DNA of 64,000 bases, taken from contig JALNYL010000002.1 of the NCBI GenBank assembly GCA_023229865.1, positions 27,577-91,576 of the forward strand. Direction: 5' to 3'. Every line of letters starts with the position of its first letter. Position 1 is the stretch's first letter. The DNA is from Minisyncoccota bacterium. GTDB lineage: Bacteria > Patescibacteriota > Minisyncoccia > Phycocordibacterales > UBA1550. Made by a program: the position numbers and the translations under genes. The notes under the pieces are model-generated. The model did no database searches, had not been told where the DNA came from, and saw only the letters and a list, made by a program, of their open reading frames with translations. This document shows, in pieces, positions 2,793-58,952 of the stretch.

Positions 2793-3395
2793 ATGTCTGC
2801 TCGTCTTGCTTTTTCACAGAAACAAAGTAGTATCAATCGTGGGTTCTTTACTTCACAAAACAAGGAGAGGAAAATGCTCAACACTCTGAAAGTCCTCTGG
2901 AATAAGTTATTTCCAGCAGATCCAGCTGACTTAACTGTCTTACAGAAATCACTTCCAAAAACAAAATCTCGCGTTCGGGGATTCACTATCGAAATACAAC
3001 GTGAGGATGGCTGCGCGTTGCGGTCTACTCAAGGAGACGCGCTTGTTGTTGATGGATATTTTAAGGTGATTGTTAAATATGACGGCTCAAACCCTCTTTA
3101 CCCCAACGAGAAACAAGATTCGAGGGTTGTTGCCTTGATGACAAATTCTCTGCATGACAAATGCGCGGGTTGGGCCAACGGGCTGTTCTACTCCCCTCGA
3201 GGAACAAAGTTTGCCTCAGTGGTGATTGAGGAAGAATACAGAGACGGAAGTGGGTTTGTTGATTGGCTTGGCAGTGGTCCGCCACCACGGATTACCCCTG
3301 GATACATGCTTTACGTGTGGGTCTACGACAAACACAAAGAGCGTCTATTCGGGTGTGGGATAGTGTCTCGTCCCGCAGAAAAGAAAAATATGTAA
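2793..3395 (+). CDS. Hypothetical protein (alternative start at 2871)
   Basis: 200-aa ORF with no recognised domain. Terminator hairpin at 3403-3433 (aaaagctccgcacgcggagctttt + T-tract). Confidence 0.45.
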   Translation: MSARLAFSQKQSSINRGFFTSQNKERKMLNTLKVLWNKLFPADPADLTVLQKSLPKTKSRVRGFTIEIQREDGCALRSTQGDALVVDGYFKVIVKYDGSNPLYPNEKQDSRVVALMTNSLHDKCAGWANGLFYSPRGTKFASVVIEEEYRDGSGFVDWLGSGPPPRITPGYMLYVWVYDKHKERLFGCGIVSRPAEKKNM

Positions 3396-3436
3396 TGTTT
3401 TTAAAAGCTCCGCACGCGGAGCTTTTTCTTTTTGGT

Positions 3437-3600
3437 GCGGGTACGGCTCTCGGTCACGAGTTACTAAGCGACTTCGTCGAGTACGACTCCCTCGCTAAGT
3501 ACTCTCGACCCCGGCTCGCTGACAAGCCCTCACTTCGTTCGTCTTGTGTACCAGCTCCGCCTTTCGATTCTCCGTACCCGCACAAAATGCAAAGCCGCCA
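3437..3600 (+). repeat. tRNA-Gly-associated repeat element, copy 1 (~165 bp; second copy at 9459-9670)
   Basis: Begins GGTGCGGGTACGGCTCTCGGTCACGAG and ends CCGTACCCGCAC, a terminal inverted repeat identical to the acceptor/T-stem of the adjacent tRNA-Gly. Shares a ~95-bp core with copy 2 at ~90% identity (ctcgctaag..ggctcgctgacaagc.ctcacttcgttcgtcttgt.taccagctccgcctttcgattctcc). Confidence 0.6.
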
Positions 3601-3628
3601 AAACAAAAGTTTTGGCGGCTGCATTTTG

Positions 3629-3699
3629 TGCGGGTACGGAGAATCGAACTCCGGTATACTGCTTGGAAGGCAGTCATTCTACCATTAAACTATACCCGC
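3629..3699 (-). tRNA. tRNA-Gly (anticodon UCC)
   Basis: Reverse complement reads GCGGGTATAGTTTAATGGTAGAATGACTGCCTTCCAAGCAGTATACCGGAGTTCGATTCTCCGTACCCGCA. The cloverleaf is intact with T-loop TTCGATT and anticodon loop CTTCCAA (anticodon TCC). CCA is not encoded. Confidence 0.85.
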
Positions 3700-3884: not shown

Positions 3885-4349
3885 CTAGATCAGCGAACGC
3901 ACCTTTGCCACGATTTCATCAAGCGTAAAATTTGCCTTGATCATAAAATCCGTTGCCCCAAGAGACTTTGCCTTCTCAAGGTCTTCTGCTTGTCCAAGAT
4001 TACTCAAGATAACAACGGGGATATCTGCCGTTTTTGGGTTCGACTTAATACGATGCAAAATCTCAAAGCCATCAACCCCAGGGAGAATAAGGTCACAGAG
4101 AATAATATTTGGCTTGCGATCCTCAAGAACAATAAAAGCCGACTGCGCATCCACGGCATTTTGCACATCAAAACCCTCTTTTGCAATCTTTTTAACAAGA
4201 AGTTCTTTCAAAAACTTGTCATCTTCAATAACAAGTACGAACGGCTTATTTTCTGGAGTTGCCGCTGTTTCTGGGGCAGGAGAAGCAACCGGAGCAGGAT
4301 TTGCTACAGGATTTACTGGTTCTGGGGTTGTTGTTGCTGTTTCTTCCAT
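3885..4349 (-). CDS. Stand-alone response-regulator receiver (REC) protein with Pro/Ala-rich N-terminus
   Basis: 154 aa. FVLVIEDD..CDLILPGVDGFEIL..IPVVILSNLGQ..KAKSLGATDF is a CheY-like receiver with phospho-acceptor Asp context. No DNA-binding output domain. Confidence 0.8.
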   Translation of the reverse strand: MEETATTTPEPVNPVANPAPVASPAPETAATPENKPFVLVIEDDKFLKELLVKKIAKEGFDVQNAVDAQSAFIVLEDRKPNIILCDLILPGVDGFEILHRIKSNPKTADIPVVILSNLGQAEDLEKAKSLGATDFMIKANFTLDEIVAKVRSLI

Positions 4350-4385
4350 GAGTTTATTTATTCTAGTACAAAACGACCATCTCTC

Positions 4386-6284
4386 CTAGGCTGTGGGCAC
4401 TTGGGAAGCAGGAGCCTCTTCTTGCTTTGGAAGGAGCTCTGGATTTGTAGGAATTACCACCGCCATTGTCGTACCCTTCCCTTCTTCAGAATCAACCCAG
4501 AGCTGTCCACCGTGGCGCACAATGATATTCTTCACAATGAAGAGACCGAGCCCTGAACCATCTGTCTGCAAGTGAATCACGTTCGCCGCGCGGAAGAATT
4601 TCGAGAAGAGTTTTGGAATCTCTGCTTTAGGAATACCGACACCCGTGTCAGAAACTTTCACCTCCACATAATCCCCTTGCCTCTCGACAACAATAGTCAC
4701 CTTACCACTAGGGAGCGTATACTTGATCGCATTGTCCACAATATTTTGAAGTGCGATAAGGAGTTTATCTTTATCAAAAACGAAATCAGGGATTGTTCCT
4801 GCGCGATTTTCAAAACGCACTTCGATATTGCGCTCACGTGAAGGGAGCACGGTGTTCTCAACAAGCGTACTCAAGAGTTTCATAAAATCATTCGTCTCGA
4901 GCTTGTAACCATACTTGTCGTTTTCAATGCGTGACACATTAAGAAGGTCATCAACGAGTTGTGACATCTTCACCCCTGTCTCATACCCACGCGTGAGCAT
5001 CCCCTTCTGCTCTTCAGTCACCTCACCGAGGTCGCCATCAAGAAGGAGCTTGAGCACCCATTTGATTCCCGAGAGCGGAGTACGGAGTTGGTGCGCCGCC
5101 ACAGAAATAAAATCAGATTTCATTTTGTCGAGCTCACGCAAGTTTGCGACCATGGAGTTAAAGACTTCACCGAAGCGACCAATCTCATCGTTCGAATGAT
5201 GTTCAACTTTCTGATTCAAATCTCCATCAGCAATCTTGCGCGCAACGAGTGAGTAACGACGAATAGGCCCCACGACTTCACGCTCAAGGATAATAGCAAG
5301 CACAACAGCGAGCACTGCAGTAAACACAATCCCTACACCAAACATACGAAGACGAAGTTCTCCCACACGTGACTCGTACGCATCCTTTGCGATATGGATT
5401 TCGATAAGGCCAATATTTTTTACAACGCCAGTTTTTTCATCGCGTGAAGGAATAGGTACCACGCGCATAATGATAGTCTTGCCATTTTCTACGCGCTCGA
5501 TTTCTCCAAAAGGATTCTTCCCTGCAAGCACATCTTCACGAACCTTCTTGTATTCAATAGGGTCATTAACAAATTTCTCCTTCCCGTCTCCCGTGTTTGC
5601 GATAACCGAAAGCTGACTATCAAAAACAACAAAGGCGTCAAAGAAATAAAAATGGGTAACATTATCAGTGATTTTCTGAAGCGCGGCAAAATCTTCATTT
5701 CTTGTCACAATGATCGCGCGCGCACTCTGCTCAACACTTGCAACGATAACCTGCAAAAGTTTTTCTGCCTCAGCTATGTCTGCGGCACTCTTTGAGCGCG
5801 TAGTGACTTCCACCTCAATAATATTAATAAGTTTTGATTGCTGATCGTTTGCGTCGATAAAGATAGGAATGTAACGCTCGAGGTCATAGTAATTTCCCGC
5901 GTCATCTTTTTTTGTAAAAGACACGCGCTTCGTCTTAATCTCTTCAATAGAAGCGAGGTCAGTCTGACTTATCCCCTGCCCAATGAGTGAATGATTTGTC
6001 GCTGCAATATATTTATTATCAACATCACTTACCGTCACATACTCCACGCCAGGGATCCTTCCTATTTCATCGACGATGTCTTGCAAGTATGTACTCTGTG
6101 CCTGAATCTGCGTAAACATACGCTCGATGTCCAATCGCAAAATATCGGTCACCGCATCTGCGTCGTTGACCACCTGGCTTTTAAGGTTCCTCCCTTCAAT
6201 GCTTATGATAATCCAAAAGGCAATCGTGAGCGTAACAGCAATCACAGCCACAAGCACAAGATTTATCTTTGTACCGAGTTTCAT
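4386..6284 (-). CDS. Sensor histidine kinase (2 TM, periplasmic sensor, HAMP, HisKA, HATPase_c)
   Basis: 632 aa. H-box SVAAHQLRTPLSGI. N/G1/G2 boxes DNAIKYT, DTGVGIP, GSGLGLFIVKNII. Sits immediately upstream of the REC gene in the same orientation. Confidence 0.85.
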   Translation of the reverse strand: MKLGTKINLVLVAVIAVTLTIAFWIIISIEGRNLKSQVVNDADAVTDILRLDIERMFTQIQAQSTYLQDIVDEIGRIPGVEYVTVSDVDNKYIAATNHSLIGQGISQTDLASIEEIKTKRVSFTKKDDAGNYYDLERYIPIFIDANDQQSKLINIIEVEVTTRSKSAADIAEAEKLLQVIVASVEQSARAIIVTRNEDFAALQKITDNVTHFYFFDAFVVFDSQLSVIANTGDGKEKFVNDPIEYKKVREDVLAGKNPFGEIERVENGKTIIMRVVPIPSRDEKTGVVKNIGLIEIHIAKDAYESRVGELRLRMFGVGIVFTAVLAVVLAIILEREVVGPIRRYSLVARKIADGDLNQKVEHHSNDEIGRFGEVFNSMVANLRELDKMKSDFISVAAHQLRTPLSGIKWVLKLLLDGDLGEVTEEQKGMLTRGYETGVKMSQLVDDLLNVSRIENDKYGYKLETNDFMKLLSTLVENTVLPSRERNIEVRFENRAGTIPDFVFDKDKLLIALQNIVDNAIKYTLPSGKVTIVVERQGDYVEVKVSDTGVGIPKAEIPKLFSKFFRAANVIHLQTDGSGLGLFIVKNIIVRHGGQLWVDSEEGKGTTMAVVIPTNPELLPKQEEAPASQVPTA

Positions 6285-7852: not shown

Positions 7853-7887
7853 GAAACGCCCATACGGGCAGTGGGTCAAAATCCTTG

Positions 7888-7960
7888 TCGGGGTGCCGAG
7901 AATCGAACTCGGCCTATCTGCTCCCAAAGCAGACGTACTACCGATATACTACACCCCGAC
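7888..7960 (-). tRNA. tRNA-Pro (anticodon UGG)
   Basis: Reverse complement reads GTCGGGGTGTAGTATATCGGTAGTACGTCTGCTTTGGGAGCAGATAGGCCGAGTTCGATTCTCGGCACCCCGACA. Anticodon loop TTTGGGA with G37. T-arm GCCGAG/TTCGATT/CTCGGC. Confidence 0.75.
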
Positions 7961-9458: not shown

Positions 9459-9670
9459 TGCGGGTAGGGCTCTCGGTCACGAGGGAAACACGAATCGTGC
9501 GCTACTCGCGCAAAGTTTACTTGTCGAGAAACAACAGGAGAATCGGGGTCAAGTTTCTAAGCTCGTAAACTCGCTAAGAACTTTCTCCCCGGGCTCGCTG
9601 ACAAGCACTCACTTCGTTCGTCTTGTATACCAGCTCCGCCTTTCGATTCTCCCTACCCGCTACAAAATGC
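9459..9670 (+). repeat. tRNA-Gly-associated repeat element, copy 2 (~212 bp)
   Basis: Begins ATGCGGGTAGGGCTCTCGGTCACGAG and ends CCCTACCCGC. These termini match the acceptor of the adjacent tRNA-Gly(GCC). Same conserved core as copy 1, with a longer internal insert. Confidence 0.6.
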
Positions 9671-9708
9671 AACAGCGCCGAAACATATGTTTCGGCGCTG
9701 GCGTTTTG

Positions 9709-9779
9709 TGCGGGTAGGGAGAATCGAACTCCCGTCTCGTCCTTGGCAAGGACGCATTCTACCACTAAACCATACCCGC
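9709..9779 (-). tRNA. tRNA-Gly (anticodon GCC)
   Basis: Reverse complement reads GCGGGTATGGTTTAGTGGTAGAATGCGTCCTTGCCAAGGACGAGACGGGAGTTCGATTCTCCCTACCCGCA. Anticodon loop TTGCCAA. Confidence 0.85.
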
Positions 9780-10124
9780 AAATTATCAATATCGTTTTAA
9801 AGTATAGGCTTTTCGCCAGCGCTTTATAACAATTCCTAGTATACAGATTTTTAAACTTTTTGGAAGAGGGGAGGGGGGTTTATGAGAAACACATGCGAAA
9901 TGTTTCATGAATAACATAGGGTTGCCAGGATTCGGCTCGCCTTACGGCCGAGACCATCCATTTTAATAGTCGTTGCACTCCTTTAAAATGGTGGGGTCAC
10001 GATAAATCTAGGACACTGCGATTTTAGCGGGTTGAGTACAACCCAAAAAAATCGGGAGCCTACGGTTCGAATCCTGGCGGGAGCACAAAAACGAAAAAAT
10101 CGCCATCGGGCGATTTCGTTTTTG

Positions 10125-10196
10125 TGCTCCCGCCAGGATTCGAACCTGGAATAACGGTTTCGAAGACCGTCGTGATATCCATTTCACTACAAGAGC
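10125..10196 (-). tRNA. tRNA-Arg (anticodon UCG)
   Basis: Reverse complement reads GCTCTTGTAGTGAAATGGATATCACGACGGTCTTCGAAACCGTTATTCCAGGTTCGAATCCTGGCGGGAGCA. Anticodon loop CTTCGAA. T-arm CCAGG/TTCGAAT/CCTGG. Confidence 0.75.
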
Positions 10197-25128: not shown

Positions 25129-25321
25129 GGGGTAGTCAAAAAATCACGGAAAAATGCGCGCGGGCACTAGTGCCCGCGCGCATTTTTCCGTGATTTTTTA
25201 ATCTATGGTAAAGTACAAACATAAATGATTAAATTCTCCTTACTCGTCATTGCGAGCGAAGCGAAGCAATCCTGGGCCCTGACTTTACAAACTTTCAACT
25301 TTTAAGCTTTACAAACTCATT

Positions 25322-45566: not shown

Positions 45567-46943
45567 ATGAGCAAACGAAATTTAATAATTATCACAGTTG
45601 TCATTCTCTCTCTTCTTGGAGGAGGAGCTTACTGGTACTACTCTCAAAAAGGCGCTCTTCCTGGAGGTGATATATTATTTCCAGGAGGAAGTGGTACCCG
45701 AACGGATGGGGGAGGTACGACCACAGAGCAGCCAACAGACGAAGATACCTTTACTCCAGGAGTAGACACGAGACTTCCTCGCCTCTACCAGCTCCACATC
45801 ACTCCCACTTCTGGTGTTGGCTTTTTTGAAGCAAAAGACAAAAAGGGTGTCGTAACCAACAGAACCGTGCGCTATGTCGAACGTGGACTTGGACACATTT
45901 TTGAAACACAGCTTTCTACTTATGTTGAATCACGTATTGTAAACGAAACTCGCCCTCGCATTTCAGAAGCACTCTGGGGAAACAGTGGAAACAGTGTGGT
46001 TTTTCGATTCCTTGATACAACGGAAGGGGCGACAATAAAGACACGCATCATAAACCTTTCGTCTCCTTTTGCAACTTCTTCGTCAGAATTTTTAACAACG
46101 GAAGAGCTTTACCTTCCTGACTCGATTCCTTTTATGGCGACAGCAGAGGATGGAACCAACGGATTGTTCTACCTCGCTGAAAAAGACGGGACTTTCACAA
46201 CGTTCCAAAACCTTAACGCCTCAAAAATATTTAACTCTGTATTTACTGAGTGGCTCCCCCAGTTCCCAAGCCAAAAACTTGTAACGCTCACTTCACGACC
46301 ATCTGAAAAAGTTCCTGGGCACATGTTCTTCCTTGACCCAAAAACAAAAGCGGTGACAAAGATTCTTGGCAACATTAACGGCCTCACCACGCTCACAAGC
46401 CACGATGGAAAATTTGTTCTTGCTTCCGAATCAAGAAATGGGGCACCAGAACTTTCAGTGTACGACGTTACCAAGAAAACAATGCTTCCTATTTATTTGC
46501 GCGGTCTCCCTGAGAAGTGCGTATGGGGGACAAAGAACCCAACATTAGTGTACTGCGGGGTCCCCGAGGCGCTTACAAACGCTAGTTACCCAGATCAGTG
46601 GTACCAAGGGGTTGTCTCTTTTTCTGACTCACTCTGGGAGATCAACGCGGAAACTCTTGCTGTTCGCAAAGTTTTCACTCCAAAAGATTTCAAAGCCCCT
46701 GCTCTTGATATGACCAATCTCTCCCTTTCTTCGGATGATGCGTATCTTGTGTTTATCAACAAACTAACGAGCACGCCATGGGTGTACAGTATCGTTGAAC
46801 CACTTCCACCACCTACTCCTATCACTGTTCCCGTGGCGGGAACAAGCACTCCAGTAGGGAGCACCTCGACATTGACAGGAACAACCACAAGGGCTGCAGT
46901 TCCTCCTTCAGTAGTAACCTCCGACATGCAGAAGCTCAAGTAG
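45567..46943 (+). CDS. Hypothetical membrane-anchored secreted protein (beta-propeller-like?)
   Basis: 458 aa. N-terminal TM IIITVVILSLLGGGAYWYY. G/T-rich linker. C-terminal T/P/S-rich tail. Confidence 0.4.
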   Translation: MSKRNLIIITVVILSLLGGGAYWYYSQKGALPGGDILFPGGSGTRTDGGGTTTEQPTDEDTFTPGVDTRLPRLYQLHITPTSGVGFFEAKDKKGVVTNRTVRYVERGLGHIFETQLSTYVESRIVNETRPRISEALWGNSGNSVVFRFLDTTEGATIKTRIINLSSPFATSSSEFLTTEELYLPDSIPFMATAEDGTNGLFYLAEKDGTFTTFQNLNASKIFNSVFTEWLPQFPSQKLVTLTSRPSEKVPGHMFFLDPKTKAVTKILGNINGLTTLTSHDGKFVLASESRNGAPELSVYDVTKKTMLPIYLRGLPEKCVWGTKNPTLVYCGVPEALTNASYPDQWYQGVVSFSDSLWEINAETLAVRKVFTPKDFKAPALDMTNLSLSSDDAYLVFINKLTSTPWVYSIVEPLPPPTPITVPVAGTSTPVGSTSTLTGTTTRAAVPPSVVTSDMQKLK

Positions 46944-47004
46944 CCACATTATAAAAACCGCCGAGCACCTGTCTGGTGCTCGGCGGTTTTTATAATGTGG
47001 CTAC
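46940..47004. terminator. Stop-to-stop perfect palindrome / bidirectional terminator between convergent ORF 45567-46943 and yidC
   Basis: gTAGccacattataaaaaccgccgagcacc-tgtc-tggtgctcggcggtttttataatgtggCTAc. A perfect ~30-bp arm palindrome that includes both genes' stop codons. Confidence 0.65.
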
Positions 47005-47729
47005 TTAATAGCCTCTTTCGCCATCTTCTTTACATAGAGCTCATGAGCAATCGAGAACATGTTGCTTGTTGCCCAATAAAGCGCGATTGCCGCTGAAATA
47101 GAGTACGAGATACCAAACACGATCACGGGAAGCACGTAGCGCATCTGAACATTCATGCTGCGCGCAAAGTCATCCTTGAATGATGGTTTCGCATCCTTGT
47201 CGGCCGGAGCCATTGGAGGAATAGAGAGTTTGATTTGATAATACTGCGTAACGGCTGCGAGAAGAGCAAGGACGCCACTCTTTGCCGAAAGCAAAACCCC
47301 CAAGAACATCATGCTTATTGCCTCAGGAAGGTGAATGAATGAGTAAAGATGTTCCGCGTTAAGATTGGGGAGTCCTTTAAAGAACACAAAGTAGAGCGCA
47401 AAGATAATAGGGAGCTGTACCACGATGAGAAGACAGCCGGAAAGGGGATTAACTCCATGTTCCTTGTAAAACTCCATCATCTTGCGCGCCTGTTCTTGCT
47501 TGTCGTCCTTGTGCTTTTCCTTGATCTTCTCAAGGTGTGGCGCGAGTTCGCGCATCTTTGCCTGAGAAACAACTTGCTTGTGTGAAAGAGGGAGGAGTGC
47601 TCCGCGGACTACAATTGTTAATAAAATAATCGCAACACCAACGTTTGCTCCCGGGACGGTCGAGATAATAAAAACGAGGGTGTTATAAAGTGGCTGATAT
47701 AAAAATGTTGAAAAAATTCCTGGTTCCAT
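47001..47729 (-). CDS. yidC: Membrane protein insertase YidC (short Oxa1-type)
   Basis: 242 aa, 5 TM helices. Conserved order yidC-yidD-rnpA-rpmH. Confidence 0.8.
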   Translation of the reverse strand: MEPGIFSTFLYQPLYNTLVFIISTVPGANVGVAIILLTIVVRGALLPLSHKQVVSQAKMRELAPHLEKIKEKHKDDKQEQARKMMEFYKEHGVNPLSGCLLIVVQLPIIFALYFVFFKGLPNLNAEHLYSFIHLPEAISMMFLGVLLSAKSGVLALLAAVTQYYQIKLSIPPMAPADKDAKPSFKDDFARSMNVQMRYVLPVIVFGISYSISAAIALYWATSNMFSIAHELYVKKMAKEAIK

Positions 47730-51505: not shown

Positions 51506-51760
51506 ATGATTCCTTTAAACCAACTTCTTAATCGGTTTAAAAACCTCACTAATAGCGAAAAGGTTAAAAAACAACTTGTGGTAGAAATTTTAACAAACAA
51601 AAAAATTCCTATTACGATTGATCAAATTTCTATTTCAAAAACCACCGTTTTTACAAAAGTTCCTCCTATTATAAAAACAGAACTTCTTTTCCAGAAAGAA
51701 GAAATATTAAAAGAAATACAAAAAATTTCCGGACTTACTACGATATCAAATATTCAGTAA
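51506..51760 (+). CDS. Hypothetical small protein downstream of dnaN (possibly DUF721/DciA-like)
   Basis: 84 aa. The assignment rests on its position after dnaN and on its basic/hydrophobic pattern. No firm motif. Confidence 0.3.
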   Translation: MIPLNQLLNRFKNLTNSEKVKKQLVVEILTNKKIPITIDQISISKTTVFTKVPPIIKTELLFQKEEILKEIQKISGLTTISNIQ

Positions 51761-51813
51761 TCCATTAAAAAAGCGCGCGGCACAAAGTGCCGCGCGCTTT
51801 TTTAATGGATTAC
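51757..51813. terminator. Stop-to-stop perfect palindrome / bidirectional terminator
   Basis: gTAAtccattaaaaaagcgcgcggcac-aaa-gtgccgcgcgcttttttaatggaTTAc. Includes the stop codons of both convergent genes. Confidence 0.65.
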
Positions 51814-54341
51814 TCTTCAGAGATAAGAAGTTGTGCAGACCCGGTCCCCTTATTAAGAATAGAATCATACACCACCGCAGTAAGAGAATTGTACGTAGTA
51901 AGAGAACCAAAATCTTGCGGTGTAAAAGAGAAAACAAAAGGTTCTGCAGTTTTTTTGCCGACAAGCTCGCCATTCAAAAATAATTCAACACGAGAAACAG
52001 GGTAGCGACTCATTGTTGATACGGAAAGCGTTATAACCTCGTCAGGTTTATGAGAAAGGGTAATATCTGTGCCGCTTAAGGTAACAGAAGAGACTGCATC
52101 ACTACTGTGATTGTTGTCATACTCCGTCGGAATGCCACTACGGTCGCCCTCAGCGATATTTTTTGAGGCAACCCAAGCGCGGACAGGAATTTCCCAAAGA
52201 GAGTACTGAGAGTCATTCTGAGGGTTTATAGGAGGGGTCCCTCGTGGTTCAGTTTTGTTTACCCAATGGAGAATAGTATGAACCTCAGGAACAACAATCG
52301 TTCCTTTCATTTCAGCTGGAGTCAGCGCCGTTGCGAGCTTCCCCGAAGAACGATCTATTACATATCTATCACCTCCTTGCCAAATCCCCTGAAGAGGAGC
52401 AGGAAGAATGGTTAAATCTTCTTTTTCTGGAGCAATAAATTTTTCATTTGGGGAAACCTTCATTGCTTCAGCCATAAATGCGTGCCAAATCGGCGTAATA
52501 ATAAATCCCGCAATATTTTTTTGGAGAGGAGTGTTGTCGTTGTTTCCTGCCCACATACCAACAGCGATGTTTGGAGTGTATCCTACTGTCCATACATCAC
52601 GGAAGTCGTTGGTGGTACCTGTTTTAACCGCGACGTCTTTGCCGGGGAAATACAGTGCTGAGTTTGCACCGAACTCTGGAGTACGCGCGACGTTGTCGGC
52701 GAGAATATTAGTAACCTTGCGCGCAATTTCAGAAGGGAAGACTTGCTCACTTGTTTGTTTAAATTCTTCTACAACAGTTCCATCTTTCGCTTCTATGCGA
52801 AGAATGGCGGTGTTGGGATTTCTTGTACCGTCGTTTGCAAAAACACCATAGGCCCCCGTGAGATCAAGGAGAGAAACTTCGCCGCCTCCAAGCACAAGGG
52901 TAAGTCCATACTGATTTGCACTACCAAGACTTTCTATCCCCATACGGCGCGCGGTTGTGAGAGAATCGTTGATCCCTGCAAGATACAATGTTTTTACTGC
53001 GGGGATGTTGAGAGATTGTGCGAGTGCATCACGCATCGAAATAGGGCCACGATATTTCCCATCGTAGTTTTCTGGCATATAACAATCCTCGGGTTTAATT
53101 TTTGGAGAGTAGGGAACACCCTGTGCATCACAGTTGGTACTGAAATTTGTCTTGAGGTCAAAGAGTACTGTCTCGGGTGTATATCCCTTCATAAACGCCG
53201 TCCCGTAAACGAACGGCTTAAAAGTAGAACCTGGCTGACGATGCGCGAGCGCAACGTTGAAGTTACCTTCTTTTTTAACATCAAAATAATCACGCGACCC
53301 CACCATCGAGAGAACCTGGCCATTTGTAGGATCTACGGCAACGAGCGCCATGTTTGAAGCGTTGAAGTTTTTCTCGAGGTCAGGAGCGGCGTTTGTAATG
53401 ATTTCCTCAGCTTTCTTTTGAAGGTCGTAATTCAATGTCGTGATGACGCGGTAACCATTTTCTTGTACCGCAAGTTCTCCATATTTATTGGCGAGATATT
53501 CTTTTACCCACTCAACAAAGTGAGGGGCTTTGATTCCCGTCGGCTCCTTAGGAAGAAACTCAATTTTTTCTGCGCGCGCAGCCACGAGCTCCTCGCTCGT
53601 AATATAGCCGAGCTCGTTCATGCGACGAAGTACGAGATTTTTGCGTTCGTCGAGTTTATCGCGATGATTGCCGTACGGAGAGTAGTATGTGGGAGCGTTG
53701 GGGATAGCGGCGAGATATGCAGACTCTGCGAGGGTAAGATCCTTCGCCTCTTTTCCAAAAAATGTTTTGGTTGCCTCCCCGATGCCGTAGATGCTGCCAC
53801 CGTAAGGAATCTCATTTAAATAAAGAGCAAGAATCTCGTCTTTTTCAAAAGCCCCCTCAAGGCGGAAGGAAAGAAGAATCTCTTTTAGTTTGCGTGTGAT
53901 GAGCTTTTCATCGGTGAGCATGGTCTTCTTGATCACCTGCTGAGTAATTGTTGAGCCACCACCACGTGTTCCTCCGTAAATAATCGCGCGAGCGACCCCA
54001 CGGAAACTAACTCCGTGATGTTCGTAAAAAGCCGAGTCCTCAATAGAGATAACCGCCTTTTTTACCCAAGGAGAAATATCAGCAAAGGGAACAATCGTGC
54101 GCTTTACATTTTGGTGCACATCATAGAGAAGGATTTTCCCCGTGCGGTCGTAGATTTTTGTGGATTGCGCAACCTTGCGGTCGTGGAATTCAGTAAAATC
54201 AGGAAGCTTCATAAAAGAAGTCCAAAGAATGAGCACTCCCGCAAAAAGAAAAGCACCACCGACAAAGAAAAGAGCCACCGCTTTCCAGTGGTTTAAAATG
54301 TAACGCAATTTTGATTTGTGTGAGCGGGCGCGTCGCACCAT
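51810..54341 (-). CDS. Class A penicillin-binding protein (PBP1A-type glycosyltransferase + transpeptidase) with C-terminal extension
   Basis: 843 aa. N-terminal TM. GT51 motifs ISIEDSAFYEHHGV and GGSTITQQVIK. Transpeptidase SxxK-context STFKPFVY, SLN and KTGTT. Confidence 0.9.
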   Translation of the reverse strand: MVRRARSHKSKLRYILNHWKAVALFFVGGAFLFAGVLILWTSFMKLPDFTEFHDRKVAQSTKIYDRTGKILLYDVHQNVKRTIVPFADISPWVKKAVISIEDSAFYEHHGVSFRGVARAIIYGGTRGGGSTITQQVIKKTMLTDEKLITRKLKEILLSFRLEGAFEKDEILALYLNEIPYGGSIYGIGEATKTFFGKEAKDLTLAESAYLAAIPNAPTYYSPYGNHRDKLDERKNLVLRRMNELGYITSEELVAARAEKIEFLPKEPTGIKAPHFVEWVKEYLANKYGELAVQENGYRVITTLNYDLQKKAEEIITNAAPDLEKNFNASNMALVAVDPTNGQVLSMVGSRDYFDVKKEGNFNVALAHRQPGSTFKPFVYGTAFMKGYTPETVLFDLKTNFSTNCDAQGVPYSPKIKPEDCYMPENYDGKYRGPISMRDALAQSLNIPAVKTLYLAGINDSLTTARRMGIESLGSANQYGLTLVLGGGEVSLLDLTGAYGVFANDGTRNPNTAILRIEAKDGTVVEEFKQTSEQVFPSEIARKVTNILADNVARTPEFGANSALYFPGKDVAVKTGTTNDFRDVWTVGYTPNIAVGMWAGNNDNTPLQKNIAGFIITPIWHAFMAEAMKVSPNEKFIAPEKEDLTILPAPLQGIWQGGDRYVIDRSSGKLATALTPAEMKGTIVVPEVHTILHWVNKTEPRGTPPINPQNDSQYSLWEIPVRAWVASKNIAEGDRSGIPTEYDNNHSSDAVSSVTLSGTDITLSHKPDEVITLSVSTMSRYPVSRVELFLNGELVGKKTAEPFVFSFTPQDFGSLTTYNSLTAVVYDSILNKGTGSAQLLISEE

Positions 54342-54412: not shown

Positions 54413-55597
54413 ATGACAAACGAAGAGAAAATCGATGAAATATTGACGCGTGGTGTTGCAGAAGTTATCCACAAGGATGACCTGCGCGCAAAACTCCTCA
54501 AAGGGGAACCCCTTCGTATTAAATTTGGGACTGATCCTACAAGCCCCAATATTCACCTCGGTCGCGCAACGTCGATTTGGAAACTCCGCGAACTCCAAGA
54601 CCTCGGACACACCATTGTTTTTATTATTGGCGATTTTACGGGGGTTATCGGTGATACTTCCGACAAAGACAGCGAGCGCCCAATGCTTTCTCGTGAGGCA
54701 GTAGAAAAGAACCTCGAAACTTACTTTGAGCAGGTTGGGAAAATCCTCGATATGAGTAAGGTGGAAAAACACCGAAATACCGAGTGGCTCGAAAAACTTA
54801 ATTACCGAGAAATCACCGAACACGCAGACGTTTTTTCTCTTTCTGATTTTATTTCTCGCGAAAACATCAAAAAGCGCCTCGATGAAGGAAAGCGCGTTTC
54901 GCTTCGCGAACTTTTGTACCCACTTATGCAGGGGTATGACAGTGTTGCTATTGATGCAGATCTCGAAATCGGCGGGACCGATCAAAAGTTTAATCTCCTT
55001 GCCGGACGTAAACTTCAGGAGCGTTTCAATAAGGAGCCACAGAACATCATGATGCTTAATATCATCGAAGGCCTCGATGGTCGCAAGATGAGTTCAAGTT
55101 GGGGAAACACTATTAATCTCACTGACACCGCAAACGATATATTTGGAAAGGTGATGAGTTTGCGCGATGAGCTCATCGTGAAATATTTTGAACACGCAAC
55201 ACGTGTGCCGATGGAGCGCGTACAAGAAGCAGAAGCAGCGCTCGGTCGCGGAGAGAATCCTCGCGATGTGAAACTCGACCTCGCAGAAGAAATCGTCGCA
55301 ATGTATTACGGACGTGACGAAGCGCTTCGCGCACGTGAATCATTTCTCGCGACGTTTCAGAAAAAAGAAATTCCTGACGACATCGAAGAAATAAAAGGAG
55401 AAGGAAAACTCGGAGAACTTTTAAAAGCAAAAGAAATTGTTTCGTCGATGACTGACTGGCGTCGTCTTGTGGGAGAAGGTGCGGTAAAGATTCTTAAAGA
55501 AGGTGGTGTTGAAGAAAAAATCACCGACGATACCGTTCTCGCAACTCCTGGTGTATACAAAATAGGGAAGCGAAGATTTGTGAAGATTGTTGAGTAA
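54413..55597 (+). CDS. tyrS: Tyrosyl-tRNA synthetase (archaeal/eukaryal-like type)
   Basis: 394 aa. Class-I HIGH-like NIHLGRA. KMSSS motif (KMSSSWGN), as in archaeal-type TyrRS. C-terminal extension. Confidence 0.65.
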   Translation: MTNEEKIDEILTRGVAEVIHKDDLRAKLLKGEPLRIKFGTDPTSPNIHLGRATSIWKLRELQDLGHTIVFIIGDFTGVIGDTSDKDSERPMLSREAVEKNLETYFEQVGKILDMSKVEKHRNTEWLEKLNYREITEHADVFSLSDFISRENIKKRLDEGKRVSLRELLYPLMQGYDSVAIDADLEIGGTDQKFNLLAGRKLQERFNKEPQNIMMLNIIEGLDGRKMSSSWGNTINLTDTANDIFGKVMSLRDELIVKYFEHATRVPMERVQEAEAALGRGENPRDVKLDLAEEIVAMYYGRDEALRARESFLATFQKKEIPDDIEEIKGEGKLGELLKAKEIVSSMTDWRRLVGEGAVKILKEGGVEEKITDDTVLATPGVYKIGKRRFVKIVE

Positions 55598-55653
55598 TTA
55601 AAAAGAAAAAGCGCGCGACCAAAATTGGTCGCGCGCTTTTTCTTTTTAATTAC
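55596..55653. terminator. Stop-to-stop perfect palindrome / bidirectional terminator
   Basis: TAAttaaaaagaaaaagcgcgcgacc-aaaatt-ggtcgcgcgctttttctttttaaTTA. Overlaps the tyrS stop and the stop of the acidic minus-strand ORF. Confidence 0.65.
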
Positions 55654-55814
55654 TCAATCTCGCTTGAAGCAAATTCTTCCCCCATACCCATTTCCTCGTC
55701 TTCAACCAAAAGGTCGTCATCAAGGTCAAGATCGAGAGCATCATCGCCGAAATCGAGATCATCGTCACCGAGATCGATCATTGCATCATCAAGTACTTCT
55801 TCTTCGTCGGACAT
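55650..55814 (-). CDS. Small highly acidic protein (54 aa)
   Basis: Not in the ORF track. Reverse-complement translation MSDEEEVLDDAMIDLGDDDLDFGDDALDLDLDDDLLVEDEEMGMGEEFASSEIE. Starts at 55812-55814 and ends at the palindromic terminator. Confidence 0.4.
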   Translation of the reverse strand: MSDEEEVLDDAMIDLGDDDLDFGDDALDLDLDDDLLVEDEEMGMGEEFASSEIE

Positions 55815-58677: not shown

Positions 58678-58683
58678 TTAAAA

Positions 58684-58750
58684 TCTAAGTAAATACAAAA
58701 AGAGGGGGCGGTCGCATAGCGACCGCCCCCTCTTTTTGTATTTACTTAGA
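58684..58750. terminator. Palindromic bidirectional terminator (33-bp arms)
   Basis: tctaagtaaatacaaaaagagggggcggtcgc-ata-gcgaccgccccctctttttgtatttacttaga. Confidence 0.65.
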
Positions 58751-58952
58751 TTACCTGAATCTTTGTGTGCTTTCCTACCTTCATGCACTTGGTGCAGATC
58801 TTGATACGTGAGCCATCAGCGAGAGGTGCCCACTGAAGATTAGGGTACTTACGCTTGTTTCCCGTAGGATTGAATTTTGTTGCGCGGACGCGATTTGAGT
58901 AGTGACCTACAATGATCGTACCCTTTCCGCAAGTTGGACAGACTTTTGCCAT
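58746..58952 (-). CDS. rpmB: 50S ribosomal protein L28
   Basis: 68 aa, basic. MAKVCPTCGKG..NRVRATKFNP..CTKCMK pattern of zinc-ribbon L28. Confidence 0.7.
   Translation of the reverse strand: MAKVCPTCGKGTIIVGHYSNRVRATKFNPTGNKRKYPNLQWAPLADGSRIKICTKCMKVGKHTKIQVI

Follow-up and report, generated by a model that had tools for sequence, protein, structure and literature searches.

Why is the 3' end of a tRNA gene in this Minisyncoccota genome repeated, in inverted orientation, immediately behind the gene, and is the resulting palindrome a feature of the tRNA itself or the visible edge of something larger? The stretch analysed, here called the window, is 64 kb long, and four tRNA genes were found in it by ARAGORN and Rfam, all on the minus strand. 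One of these, tRNA-Arg(TCG), is located at 10125-10196 (or from 10124), matches Rfam RF00005 with 66 bits and has no encoded CCA. A repeat search places a palindrome of 83 nt at its 3' end (10064-10146), with arms of 33 nt each that are 100% complementary. The right arm (10114-10146, minus strand) consists of tRNA nt 52-73 (22 nt) and an 11-nt, A-rich trailer, while the left arm (10064-10096, minus strand) consists of the trailer complement and an inverted copy of tRNA nt 52-73, termed antiS on the tRNA strand. At the palindrome centre lies the inner hairpin hp1 (10097-10116, both strands), a bidirectional, intrinsic-terminator-like stem-loop recognized by terminator scan and folding, which has an 8-9-bp GC stem, U-runs on each strand and a terminator score in both directions. 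The palindrome as a whole is graded near-perfect because a 3-nt AAA bulge splits the outer from the inner stem. The earlier note on this DNA was right that a palindrome exists behind tRNA-Arg(UCG) and that its right arm is the tRNA end plus trailer; the span that it gave (10059-10145) was about 5 nt off, the bulge is at odds with its description as perfect, and its arm of 24 + 10 nt is corrected here to 22 + 11 nt. Its suggestion of a terminator role agrees with the terminator scan, by which the palindrome centre is terminator-like on both strands.

The same layout was found by repeat search at three of the four tRNA genes of the window and not at tRNA-Pro, exactly as had been claimed. The gene for tRNA-Gly(GCC) (9709-9779, minus strand; from 9708 by ARAGORN and Rfam) has a palindrome at 9642-9728, in which 19-nt arms (9642-9660 and 9710-9728) surround a 14-bp perfect hairpin (9673-9700). 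That for tRNA-Gly(TCC) (3629-3699, minus strand; from 3628 by ARAGORN and Rfam) has a palindrome at 3563-3648 with 29-nt arms (3563-3591 and 3620-3648) and an inner terminator hairpin (3593-3620). All three inner hairpins (10097-10116, 9673-9700 and 3593-3620) possess a GC stem and a U-run and are terminator-like on both strands. At the Gly(GCC) locus, neither the inverted copy nor the inner stem has a mismatch and the trailer that separates them has three differences, a pattern that looks like selection rather than recency. Behind tRNA-Pro(TGG) (7887-7958, minus strand; ARAGORN, Rfam) no palindrome was found by the repeat search, and a co-directional gene follows within ~35 nt.

Long perfect palindromes are a property of the clade to which the window belongs, and those at tRNA genes differ from the others only in that one arm is the tRNA end. 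In the window, 15 palindromes are perfect over arms of 14-34 nt; 12 are away from tRNAs, and five of these have arms of 28-34 nt and are found at ordinary gene ends. Chance is no explanation, because 20 shuffles of the window yielded no perfect palindrome with arms of at least 14 nt, compared with the 15 observed. Close relatives also have long perfect palindromes; the loci of other Patescibacteria are mostly without them. The idea that the layout is a property of tRNA loci is borne out insofar as it recurs at about one third of the bystander tRNAs described below, but such palindromes are not specific to tRNA loci in this genome, where 12 of the window's 15 lie elsewhere. Some of the non-tRNA palindromes directly abut the stop codons of flanking genes or take them in. 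What causes such long and perfect intergenic palindromes in this clade is a separate question that these observations raise.

At the tRNA genes, the palindrome is the tRNA-proximal end of a non-coding cassette of 130-260 nt. Beyond the outer arm of both Gly palindromes the sequence is conserved, including an invariant CTCACTTCGTTCGTCTTGT, and terminates in a short stretch that duplicates the tRNA 3' end in tRNA orientation. On the tRNA strand, the order of elements is tRNA (nt 1-73), A-rich trailer, hp1, trailer complement, antisense copy of nt ~73-54, core and direct copy of nt 56-73. A short trailer comes after the direct copy, in most cases together with another hairpin that has the look of the tRNA's original terminator. 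Core and direct copy always meet between nt 55 and 56, just past the TCG of the T-loop. The tRNA gene is left intact by the unit, which is bounded by the direct repeat of the tRNA 3' segment. The palindrome is not the self-contained tRNA feature that had been assumed: it joins the end of the tRNA, through a bidirectional terminator hairpin, to the inverted tRNA-end copy of a conserved cassette, to which its outer arm belongs and which continues for ~140-200 nt before ending in the direct tRNA-end copy.

The commonest core, referred to as A-type, contains two hairpins, P2 and P3. RNAalifold predicts 21 pairs from 26 sequences, 11 of them with double compensatory changes. A covariance model built for the A-type core, R1, has 60 matches in the collected loci, of which 50 are distinct. 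In the R1 alignment, 15 of the 21 pairs covary with changes on both sides, 96.4% of the cells are paired (80.3% in column shuffles and 28-49% when the partners are slid by 1-3 columns) and the covariation score is 0.391 vs. 0.139; this alignment was fitted to the model and so leans to structure, and the independent MAFFT/RNAalifold result agrees with it. R1 also matches variants in which P2 is kept and P3 is replaced, at tRNA-Pro, tRNA-Asp and tRNA-Arg genes and, in relatives, at Gly(TCC). Another module, B-type, consists of the stem ACCTTTTG../..CAAAAGGT and, behind it, a hairpin whose loop is GTAA/GTA when read on the tRNA strand, and occurs either alone or stacked with A-type units.

Judged by P2, P3 and the conserved 19-mer loop, both tRNA-Gly units of the window are A-type and the tRNA-Arg unit is not. 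The A-type core at Gly(GCC) (9526-9673, minus strand; R1 match of 135 bits) has its invariant 19-mer at 9608-9626, includes the inverted copy and contains a short direct copy of tRNA nt 56-64 at 9536-9545. This full unit adjoins the tRNA, and distal to it is the remnant of an older cassette (9460-9535, minus strand), with a direct acceptor-end copy at 9460-9469, which is common to the relatives L044 and L045. The A-type core at Gly(TCC) (3433-3594, minus strand; R1 match of 130 bits; 19-mer at 3529-3547) has at its end a direct tRNA-end copy (3435-3446), after which CCA and the ancestral trailer follow on the tRNA strand. From P3 to the inverted copy, the two Gly loci of the window are near-identical, with 3-4 differences in 72 nt. 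The core of the tRNA-Arg cassette (9935-10063, minus strand) is composite, starting with a remnant that resembles the 3' strand of an A-type P2 (..cgtgacccc) and continuing with a B-like module, in which a 10-bp stem, CCATTTTAAA/TTTAAAATGG, precedes the hairpin GGTCTCGGCC-GTAA-GGCGAGC. The fold of this core has a z-score of -3.1. Next to it is L', a direct copy of 11 nt (tRNA-Arg nt 56-66; 9924-9934, minus strand), which reads CGAATCCTGGC on the tRNA strand and is found at the same place in relative L044; the junction, GGATTCG followed by G, matches that of the other units. R1 does not match the tRNA-Arg unit of the window, and blastn, nhmmer and MAFFT alignment with the B-type modules revealed no significant relative of its core among the collected loci. 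The tRNA-Arg unit has its architecture in common with the B-type modules, and since it lacks a significant sequence relative, it is placed in the cassette family by architecture only.

A scan for the 19-mer in one genome per species (GTDB), and with a slightly degenerate pattern in metagenomes, located the core at 18 genome loci and 25 metagenome loci (more than 40), nearly all named Patescibacteria. The genome loci are from Nomura-, Parcu- and Paceibacterota, Saccharibacteria and Vogelbacteria. The window's own organism is, by homologues of its CCA enzyme, a Paceibacterota bacterium related closely to Yonath- and Nomurabacteria. In most of the loci from the scan, the 19-mer faces a convergent tRNA gene with its 3' end at +97 to +103 nt, or at +66 in the tRNA-Trp group. 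The tRNAs ahead of the core include those for His, Trp, Gly(GCC, TCC), Leu, Ser, Glu, Gln, Val and Lys, while variants or stacked units follow the tRNA genes for Ala, Asp and Pro; a single core type accompanies at least 11 kinds of tRNA. Among the 60 tRNAs of the collected loci, the window being one of them, a near-perfect direct copy is the rule (scores of 19-22 of 22 at most loci), whereas the inverted copy is usually imperfect, or is shortened to 4-9 nt, in most lineages. The three loci of the window reverse this pattern, their inverted copy being better than the direct one, and it is in the window's clade that the inverted copy is perfect. Of the bystander tRNAs, which were not the basis for picking a locus, ~8 have a unit and ~17 do not, in what is a small and biased sample rather than a genome survey.

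The units contain no ORF, and among 117 ORFs within 2.5 kb of the units of 35 loci there is no recurrent integrase, transposase or reverse transcriptase (RT), nor is any other protein gene recurrent beside them; a Xer-like gene ~4 kb away is syntenic housekeeping. Rfam 15 contains no family for the units, even at E<=10, with only the four tRNAs reaching the gathering threshold, and its E-value mode returned only hairpin-like miRNA noise for them. No description of the cassette was found in Rfam or in the full-text literature, the 19-mer string included; coverage of the literature is incomplete, and an earlier description is possible. One related paper, about group I introns that interrupt the anticodon loop of tRNAs in Patescibacteria, is silent on the cassette.

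Several known identities were considered and rejected. For a tmRNA or other convergent tRNA-like gene, ARAGORN reports none, Rfam gives only a sub-threshold tmRNA_permuted match of 16.5 bits and the 5' strand of the T-stem is absent; a tRNA of the opposite strand, whether split, permuted or intron-containing, would need more than the tRNA-derived parts seen there, which are limited to nt 54-73 and the complement of nt 56-73. A small protein gene does not fit the indels between the two Gly copies, which are not multiples of three, and there is no consistent ORF. Known ribozymes, riboswitches, retron ncRNAs and OMEGA/bridge RNAs have no Rfam match and no adjacent RT, TnpB or IS110 gene; the junction strands do not fit a hammerhead. 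A group I intron is rejected by the lack of any RF00028 match, even at E<=10, and by the location of the unit after nt 73. The TTAC that could be taken for an IS200/IS605-like target is the hairpin loop of the B-type modules as read on one strand, GTAA/GTA (GNRA/GNA) on the tRNA strand, and not an element boundary. The units may nevertheless be related to IS200/IS605-type PATE or REP elements, for which the neighbouring ORFs were inspected and include no HUH transposase (TnpA or RAYT). A MITE would have terminal inverted repeats and a target duplication of fixed short length, which the units lack, their ends being trailer/hairpin and tRNA copy. As for a phage origin, two scans of viral contigs gave one match, in a different context and compatible with chance.

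Among close relatives, units vary between presence and absence and occur in tandem, nested and mosaic arrangements. The loci L038 and L043 are almost identical over ~700 nt and differ by one 181-nt unit; the extra unit of L043 is behind tRNA-Leu(TAA), where it is flanked by a perfect 19-nt repeat of tRNA nt 56-74, and L038 has the empty site. Identical tandem units, two or more each, are found in L036 (period of 183 nt) and L042 (181 nt), and A-type and B-type units are stacked behind one tRNA in L019, L024 and L035. Relatives with 89-95% identity in the CCA enzyme were compared at syntenic loci; behind the orthologous Gly(TCC), Gly(GCC) and Arg genes they differ in hp1, inverted copy and core, while distal remnants are shared. 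At Gly(TCC), the relatives have P2 and the distal tRNA copy as in the window and a different P3, hp1 and trailer. At Gly(GCC), L044 and L045 have neither the inverted tRNA copy nor the 19-mer core, and L050 has no recognizable unit. Every examined tRNA-Arg(TCG) ortholog of the window's type has some unit (L044, L047-L050 and the window); those of L044 and L047-L050 are differing A-family variants with inverted copies of 4 to ~20 nt, and L045 has a different tRNA-Arg gene and no unit. The displaced Gly(TCC) end of the window, CCGTACCCGCACCAAAAAGAAAAA, recurs without any difference in L044, where it is the functional tRNA end with CCA and trailer, whereas the functional Gly(TCC) tRNA of the window has no CCA and a new trailer. 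The window's lineage has therefore had its native 3' flank shifted ~190 nt downstream. The contigs of four relatives end inside units, which is what repeats would be expected to cause. With such turnover and presence/absence differences, the site is recombination-prone, in line with the earlier suggestion of a recombination hotspot. The cassettes are thus a family that is widespread in Patescibacteria, structured, without a linked protein gene and polymorphic.

The effect of the units on the transcript was assessed by folding. The tRNA alone, or extended through hp1, folds as a cloverleaf plus terminator. When the inverted copy is included, the hairpin wins over the cloverleaf, as the earlier note had thought it might: the minimum free energy (MFE) structure is a ~40-bp duplex that takes the T arm and the 3' strand of the acceptor (-80.8, -89.0 and -78.3 kcal/mol). 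For a transcript that reads through as far as the direct copy, the MFE prediction pairs this distal copy with the 5' strand of the tRNA. These read-through folds are equilibrium predictions that co-transcriptional folding and termination at hp1 would normally prevent. The proposed role in 3'-end processing or decay is thus only partly borne out, since the hairpin would prevail on read-through but the inner terminator should halt most tRNA transcripts before the inverted copy is reached.

Which strand of the core is structured was judged from several features. The tRNA-sense strand comes out ahead by single-sequence MFE in 29 of 29 cases, by z-score in 18 of 26 and by the energy of the RNAalifold consensus (-19.7 vs. 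-16.7 kcal/mol). On the tRNA strand, the loops read as GNRA/GNA (GTAA, C-GAA-G, C-GTA-G and T-GAA-A) and the internal loops are purine-rich, and in one variant the apical pair changes from AC-GAA-GU to GC-GAA-GC (tRNA-sense). On the other strand, scanning revealed no promoter-like site, nor is there room for one between the distal hairpin and the unit. Evidence against the tRNA strand includes the efficient-looking terminator hp1 between tRNA and unit and several lineages with a G.U on the opposite strand at one P2 pair; strand counts of G.U vs. A.C are biased by the strand of the model. On balance, the structured strand is more likely to be tRNA-sense, as RNA or as single-stranded DNA. Pairing between the inverted and direct copies includes 16 G.U-type vs. 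14 A.C-type and 24 other mismatches, and is nearly absent in L049 and L001; as there is no wobble bias, this "closing stem" suggests common origin rather than selection.

Based on these results, we propose that the palindrome is the junction of a tRNA gene with a small, non-coding and non-autonomous insertion cassette that is specific to the tRNA 3' ends of Patescibacteria, a reading to which we give an even chance. The units would spread and be exchanged by recombination through the tRNA-derived segments that they carry and through the conserved junction sequences; the process could be of Campbell type or consist of homologous recombination and gene conversion, perhaps following the uptake of DNA, and would require no enzyme encoded by the element. 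The newest unit would be the one adjoining the tRNA, and the perfect inverted copy seen here would probably reflect recent insertion together with the tendency of this clade to perfect palindromes. Exchange by recombination fits the mosaic Gly(TCC) units, with P2 in common and P3 different, and also the near-identical module from P3 to the inverted copy at the two Gly loci of the window. Several points count against the proposal. No enzyme or intermediate of movement was found; presence/absence differences can also arise by repeat-mediated deletion; units at every Arg ortholog of this type, together with the covariation, also fit a selected host RNA; and insertion leaves unaccounted for how one core type comes to have inverted and direct copies matched to more than 10 tRNAs. 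The selection-like pattern at Gly(GCC), the mixed strand features and the want of a significant sequence relative of the tRNA-Arg core among the collected loci also weigh against it. The core may perform a service for the host, e.g., as an RNA-processing or protein-binding platform, or serve only its own spread. A bolder version, which we consider clearly unlikely, is that the cassette is a protein-independent, self-targeting element, whose antisense segment would guide the core to the T-loop and 3' end of any tRNA gene, either in RNA form or as folded single-stranded DNA imported by these competent bacteria, and whose product would be a new class of RNA with a tRNA-minihelix cap, matured by RNase P and the CCA-adding enzyme.

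The rival that comes closest to the insertion cassette is a tRNA-linked structured RNA that benefits the host, a 3' external-spacer or "minihelix-capped" RNA that would be inherited mainly vertically and reshuffled by gene conversion, with a closing stem that mimics the acceptor/T helix and could be processed by RNase P, RNase Z and the CCA-adding enzyme. It would account for the strong covariation and for a loop that is invariant across the phylum, for the unit at every tRNA-Arg(TCG) ortholog of this type, for the purine-rich internal loops, GNRA/GNA loops and apical-pair change on the tRNA-sense strand and for the predicted pairing of the tRNA 5' end with the distal copy. The decay of the inverted/direct pairing without wobble bias, down to near absence in L049 and L001, does not agree with it, nor do the terminator between tRNA and unit and the lack of a promoter-like site on the other side, and turnover, tandem units and presence/absence among near-identical genomes are at variance with simple vertical inheritance; we regard it as unlikely. 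The palindrome, in another reading, may be nothing but an over-extended terminator, in which genome-wide hairpin template switching (quasipalindrome correction) copied the constrained tRNA side onto the free side. This would suit the 15 perfect palindromes of the window, 12 of them away from tRNAs and some abutting or including stop codons, their occurrence in relatives and an inverted copy that is perfect in this clade and imperfect in most other lineages, but it explains neither the covarying core, the direct tRNA-end copy and the T-loop junction nor the imperfect inverted copy beside the core in distant classes. As a complete account it is improbable, and template switching is best seen as contributing to the perfection of the arms, not to their origin.

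That the inverted copy is a cis-acting RNA regulator, in which the ~40-bp duplex formed on read-through sequesters the T arm and acceptor 3' strand and leads to decay by RNase III or to blocked 3' processing, is in keeping with the predicted loss of the cloverleaf to the long hairpin and with an inverted copy at Gly(GCC) that stays perfect though the trailer has diverged. It is quite improbable, given that the inner hairpin and U-run should terminate transcription before the inverted copy, that this copy is imperfect or only 4-9 nt long in most lineages and that the core and direct repeat are left unaccounted for. Tyrosine integrases that target the T-loop generate a direct repeat from the T-loop to the tRNA 3' end and restore the tRNA, which is the arrangement seen here, and the units might accordingly be taken for scars, i.e., fused att sites, left where larger phages or islands had integrated, by way of an integrase, and been excised. 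The ssrA islands of Dehalococcoides are a known case of tandem repeats beside a tRNA-like gene (PMC3146451). We find this origin very improbable for units of 130-260 nt whose covarying core is kept across the phylum, next to which no integrase is enriched and for which viral contigs gave only a single chance-level match.

If the insertion-cassette reading is true, the tRNA genes of a minimal-genome superphylum have been colonized by small structured cassettes that are apparently undescribed and that rewrite the 3' flank of the tRNA, with a new terminator and sometimes the loss of the encoded CCA, while turning over faster than the surrounding genes. They would constitute a new class of conserved RNA or single-stranded DNA motif, for which the covariance model R1 is available, and a tractable case of non-coding DNA that spreads by a conserved target sequence only. 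They would also provide a practical account of assembly breaks at tRNA loci in metagenome-assembled genomes (MAGs) of Patescibacteria and a marker for strain-level variation.

Compared with known systems, the centre of the palindrome resembles bidirectional Rho-independent terminators in having a GC stem, an A-tract and a U-tract and in scoring on both strands, but termination would need 20-30 nt less of complementarity than there is, the excess reaching into the acceptor and T arm. Template switching after the Ripley model would likewise account for perfect arms that reach into constrained sequence genome-wide; it is a mutational process rather than an element and yields neither core nor direct repeat. 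The inverted and direct copies can form a helix of which one strand is the tRNA acceptor/T stack, a likeness to the tRNA-like domain of tmRNA, to viral tRNA-like structures (TLS) and to mascRNA, and the 3'ETS-leuZ spacer RNA shares the location of the unit in a tRNA 3' external spacer. Unlike such tRNA-like ends and minihelices, the units have no T arm by ARAGORN or Rfam, and their putative helix is degenerate in many copies. The group I introns of Patescibacteria tRNAs share with the units the phylum, the host genes and a structured, mostly ORF-less and selfish-looking nature, but they reside in the anticodon loop, are true ribozymes and have Rfam matches, whereas the units are behind the tRNA, are much smaller and have no Rfam model.

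Like integrative elements at the att sites of phages, ICEs and islands, among them the tandem ssrA islands of Dehalococcoides (PMC3146451), the cassettes are inserted at the 3' part of the tRNA with a T-loop junction, flanking tRNA direct repeats, a restored tRNA and tandem stacking at one site. The comparison of L043 with L038 exhibits the flanks of tRNA repeat that define integrative elements, but no linked recombinase accompanies them: the cassette is only 130-260 nt long, is without an integrase or any ORF, has a covarying core and an extra inverted copy and occurs with one core behind more than 10 tRNAs. MITEs, REP/BIME, Correia and RPE elements are, like the units, short, non-coding, multi-copy, structured, non-autonomous and intergenic, and the units share the presence/absence polymorphism that is expected of MITEs. 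They differ from all of these in that their target is strictly the tRNA segment from nt 55/56 to the 3' end, that their flanking repeat is 18-20 nt of that target and that their internal loops are conserved across the phylum.

No tRNA gene of the window (0 of 4) encodes its CCA end, and the gene for the CCA-adding enzyme (10224/10269-11744, plus strand) directly adjoins tRNA-Arg in divergent orientation. In tRNA-Gly(TCC), the encoded CCA is absent from the window gene, whereas it is present in relatives that are 93-95% identical (window 3435-3446 and flank, compared with 3230-3303 of the syntenic locus L044). Both the CCA and the ancestral trailer are retained on the displaced copy of the tRNA-Gly(TCC) 3' end in the window (3435-3446 and flank). 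A near-identical relative of the unit, i.e., the non-coding cassette, behind this tRNA is found at 1596-1782 of L037, where about 25 nt are added at the base of the core hairpin P3, and because of these extra nucleotides its score with R1, the covariance model of the A-type core, falls to 84 bits.

In four relatives (L046, L047, L048 and L049), the metagenome contigs terminate within the tail units of tRNA-Arg or tRNA-Gly, just upstream of the cca gene, which is consistent with assemblies breaking where the DNA is repeated or palindromic. The tRNA-Pro of another relative, L050 (666-737), is followed about 15 nt downstream by a partial direct copy of its T arm (GCCGAGTTCGATTCT); this copy may be what is left of a unit, which the tRNA-Pro of the window lacks. 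In the interval that separates tRNA-Gly(GCC) from the tRNA-Arg unit, a 10-codon ORF (MRNTCEMFHE) is preceded by a run rich in G that resembles a Shine-Dalgarno sequence (GGAGGGGGG; together 9866-9915, plus strand), and part of this stretch is kept in L044 (gttattcatgaaaca).

The 19-mer, the invariant sequence of the A-type core, is additionally found in hairpin loops outside its usual context: in a tandem repeat beside tRNA-Ser on a contig labelled Bacteroidota (L010, about 4265-4407), on one viral contig, possibly by chance (L051, 4326-4344), and in L008 (4773-4800), where the palindrome of tRNA-Val itself has it as its loop.

Long palindromes also occur away from the tRNAs. The window contains 15 perfect palindromes with arms of at least 14 nt, compared with none in shuffled sequences; ten are shorter, and the five long ones, with arms of 28-34 nt, lie at ordinary gene ends (25138-25199, 46938-47006, 51756-51814, 55590-55657 and 58682-58752). 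The stop codons of flanking genes fall inside some of the very long palindromes. This trait is common to the window and its relatives L044, L045 and L034, and is mostly absent from the loci of other Patescibacteria.
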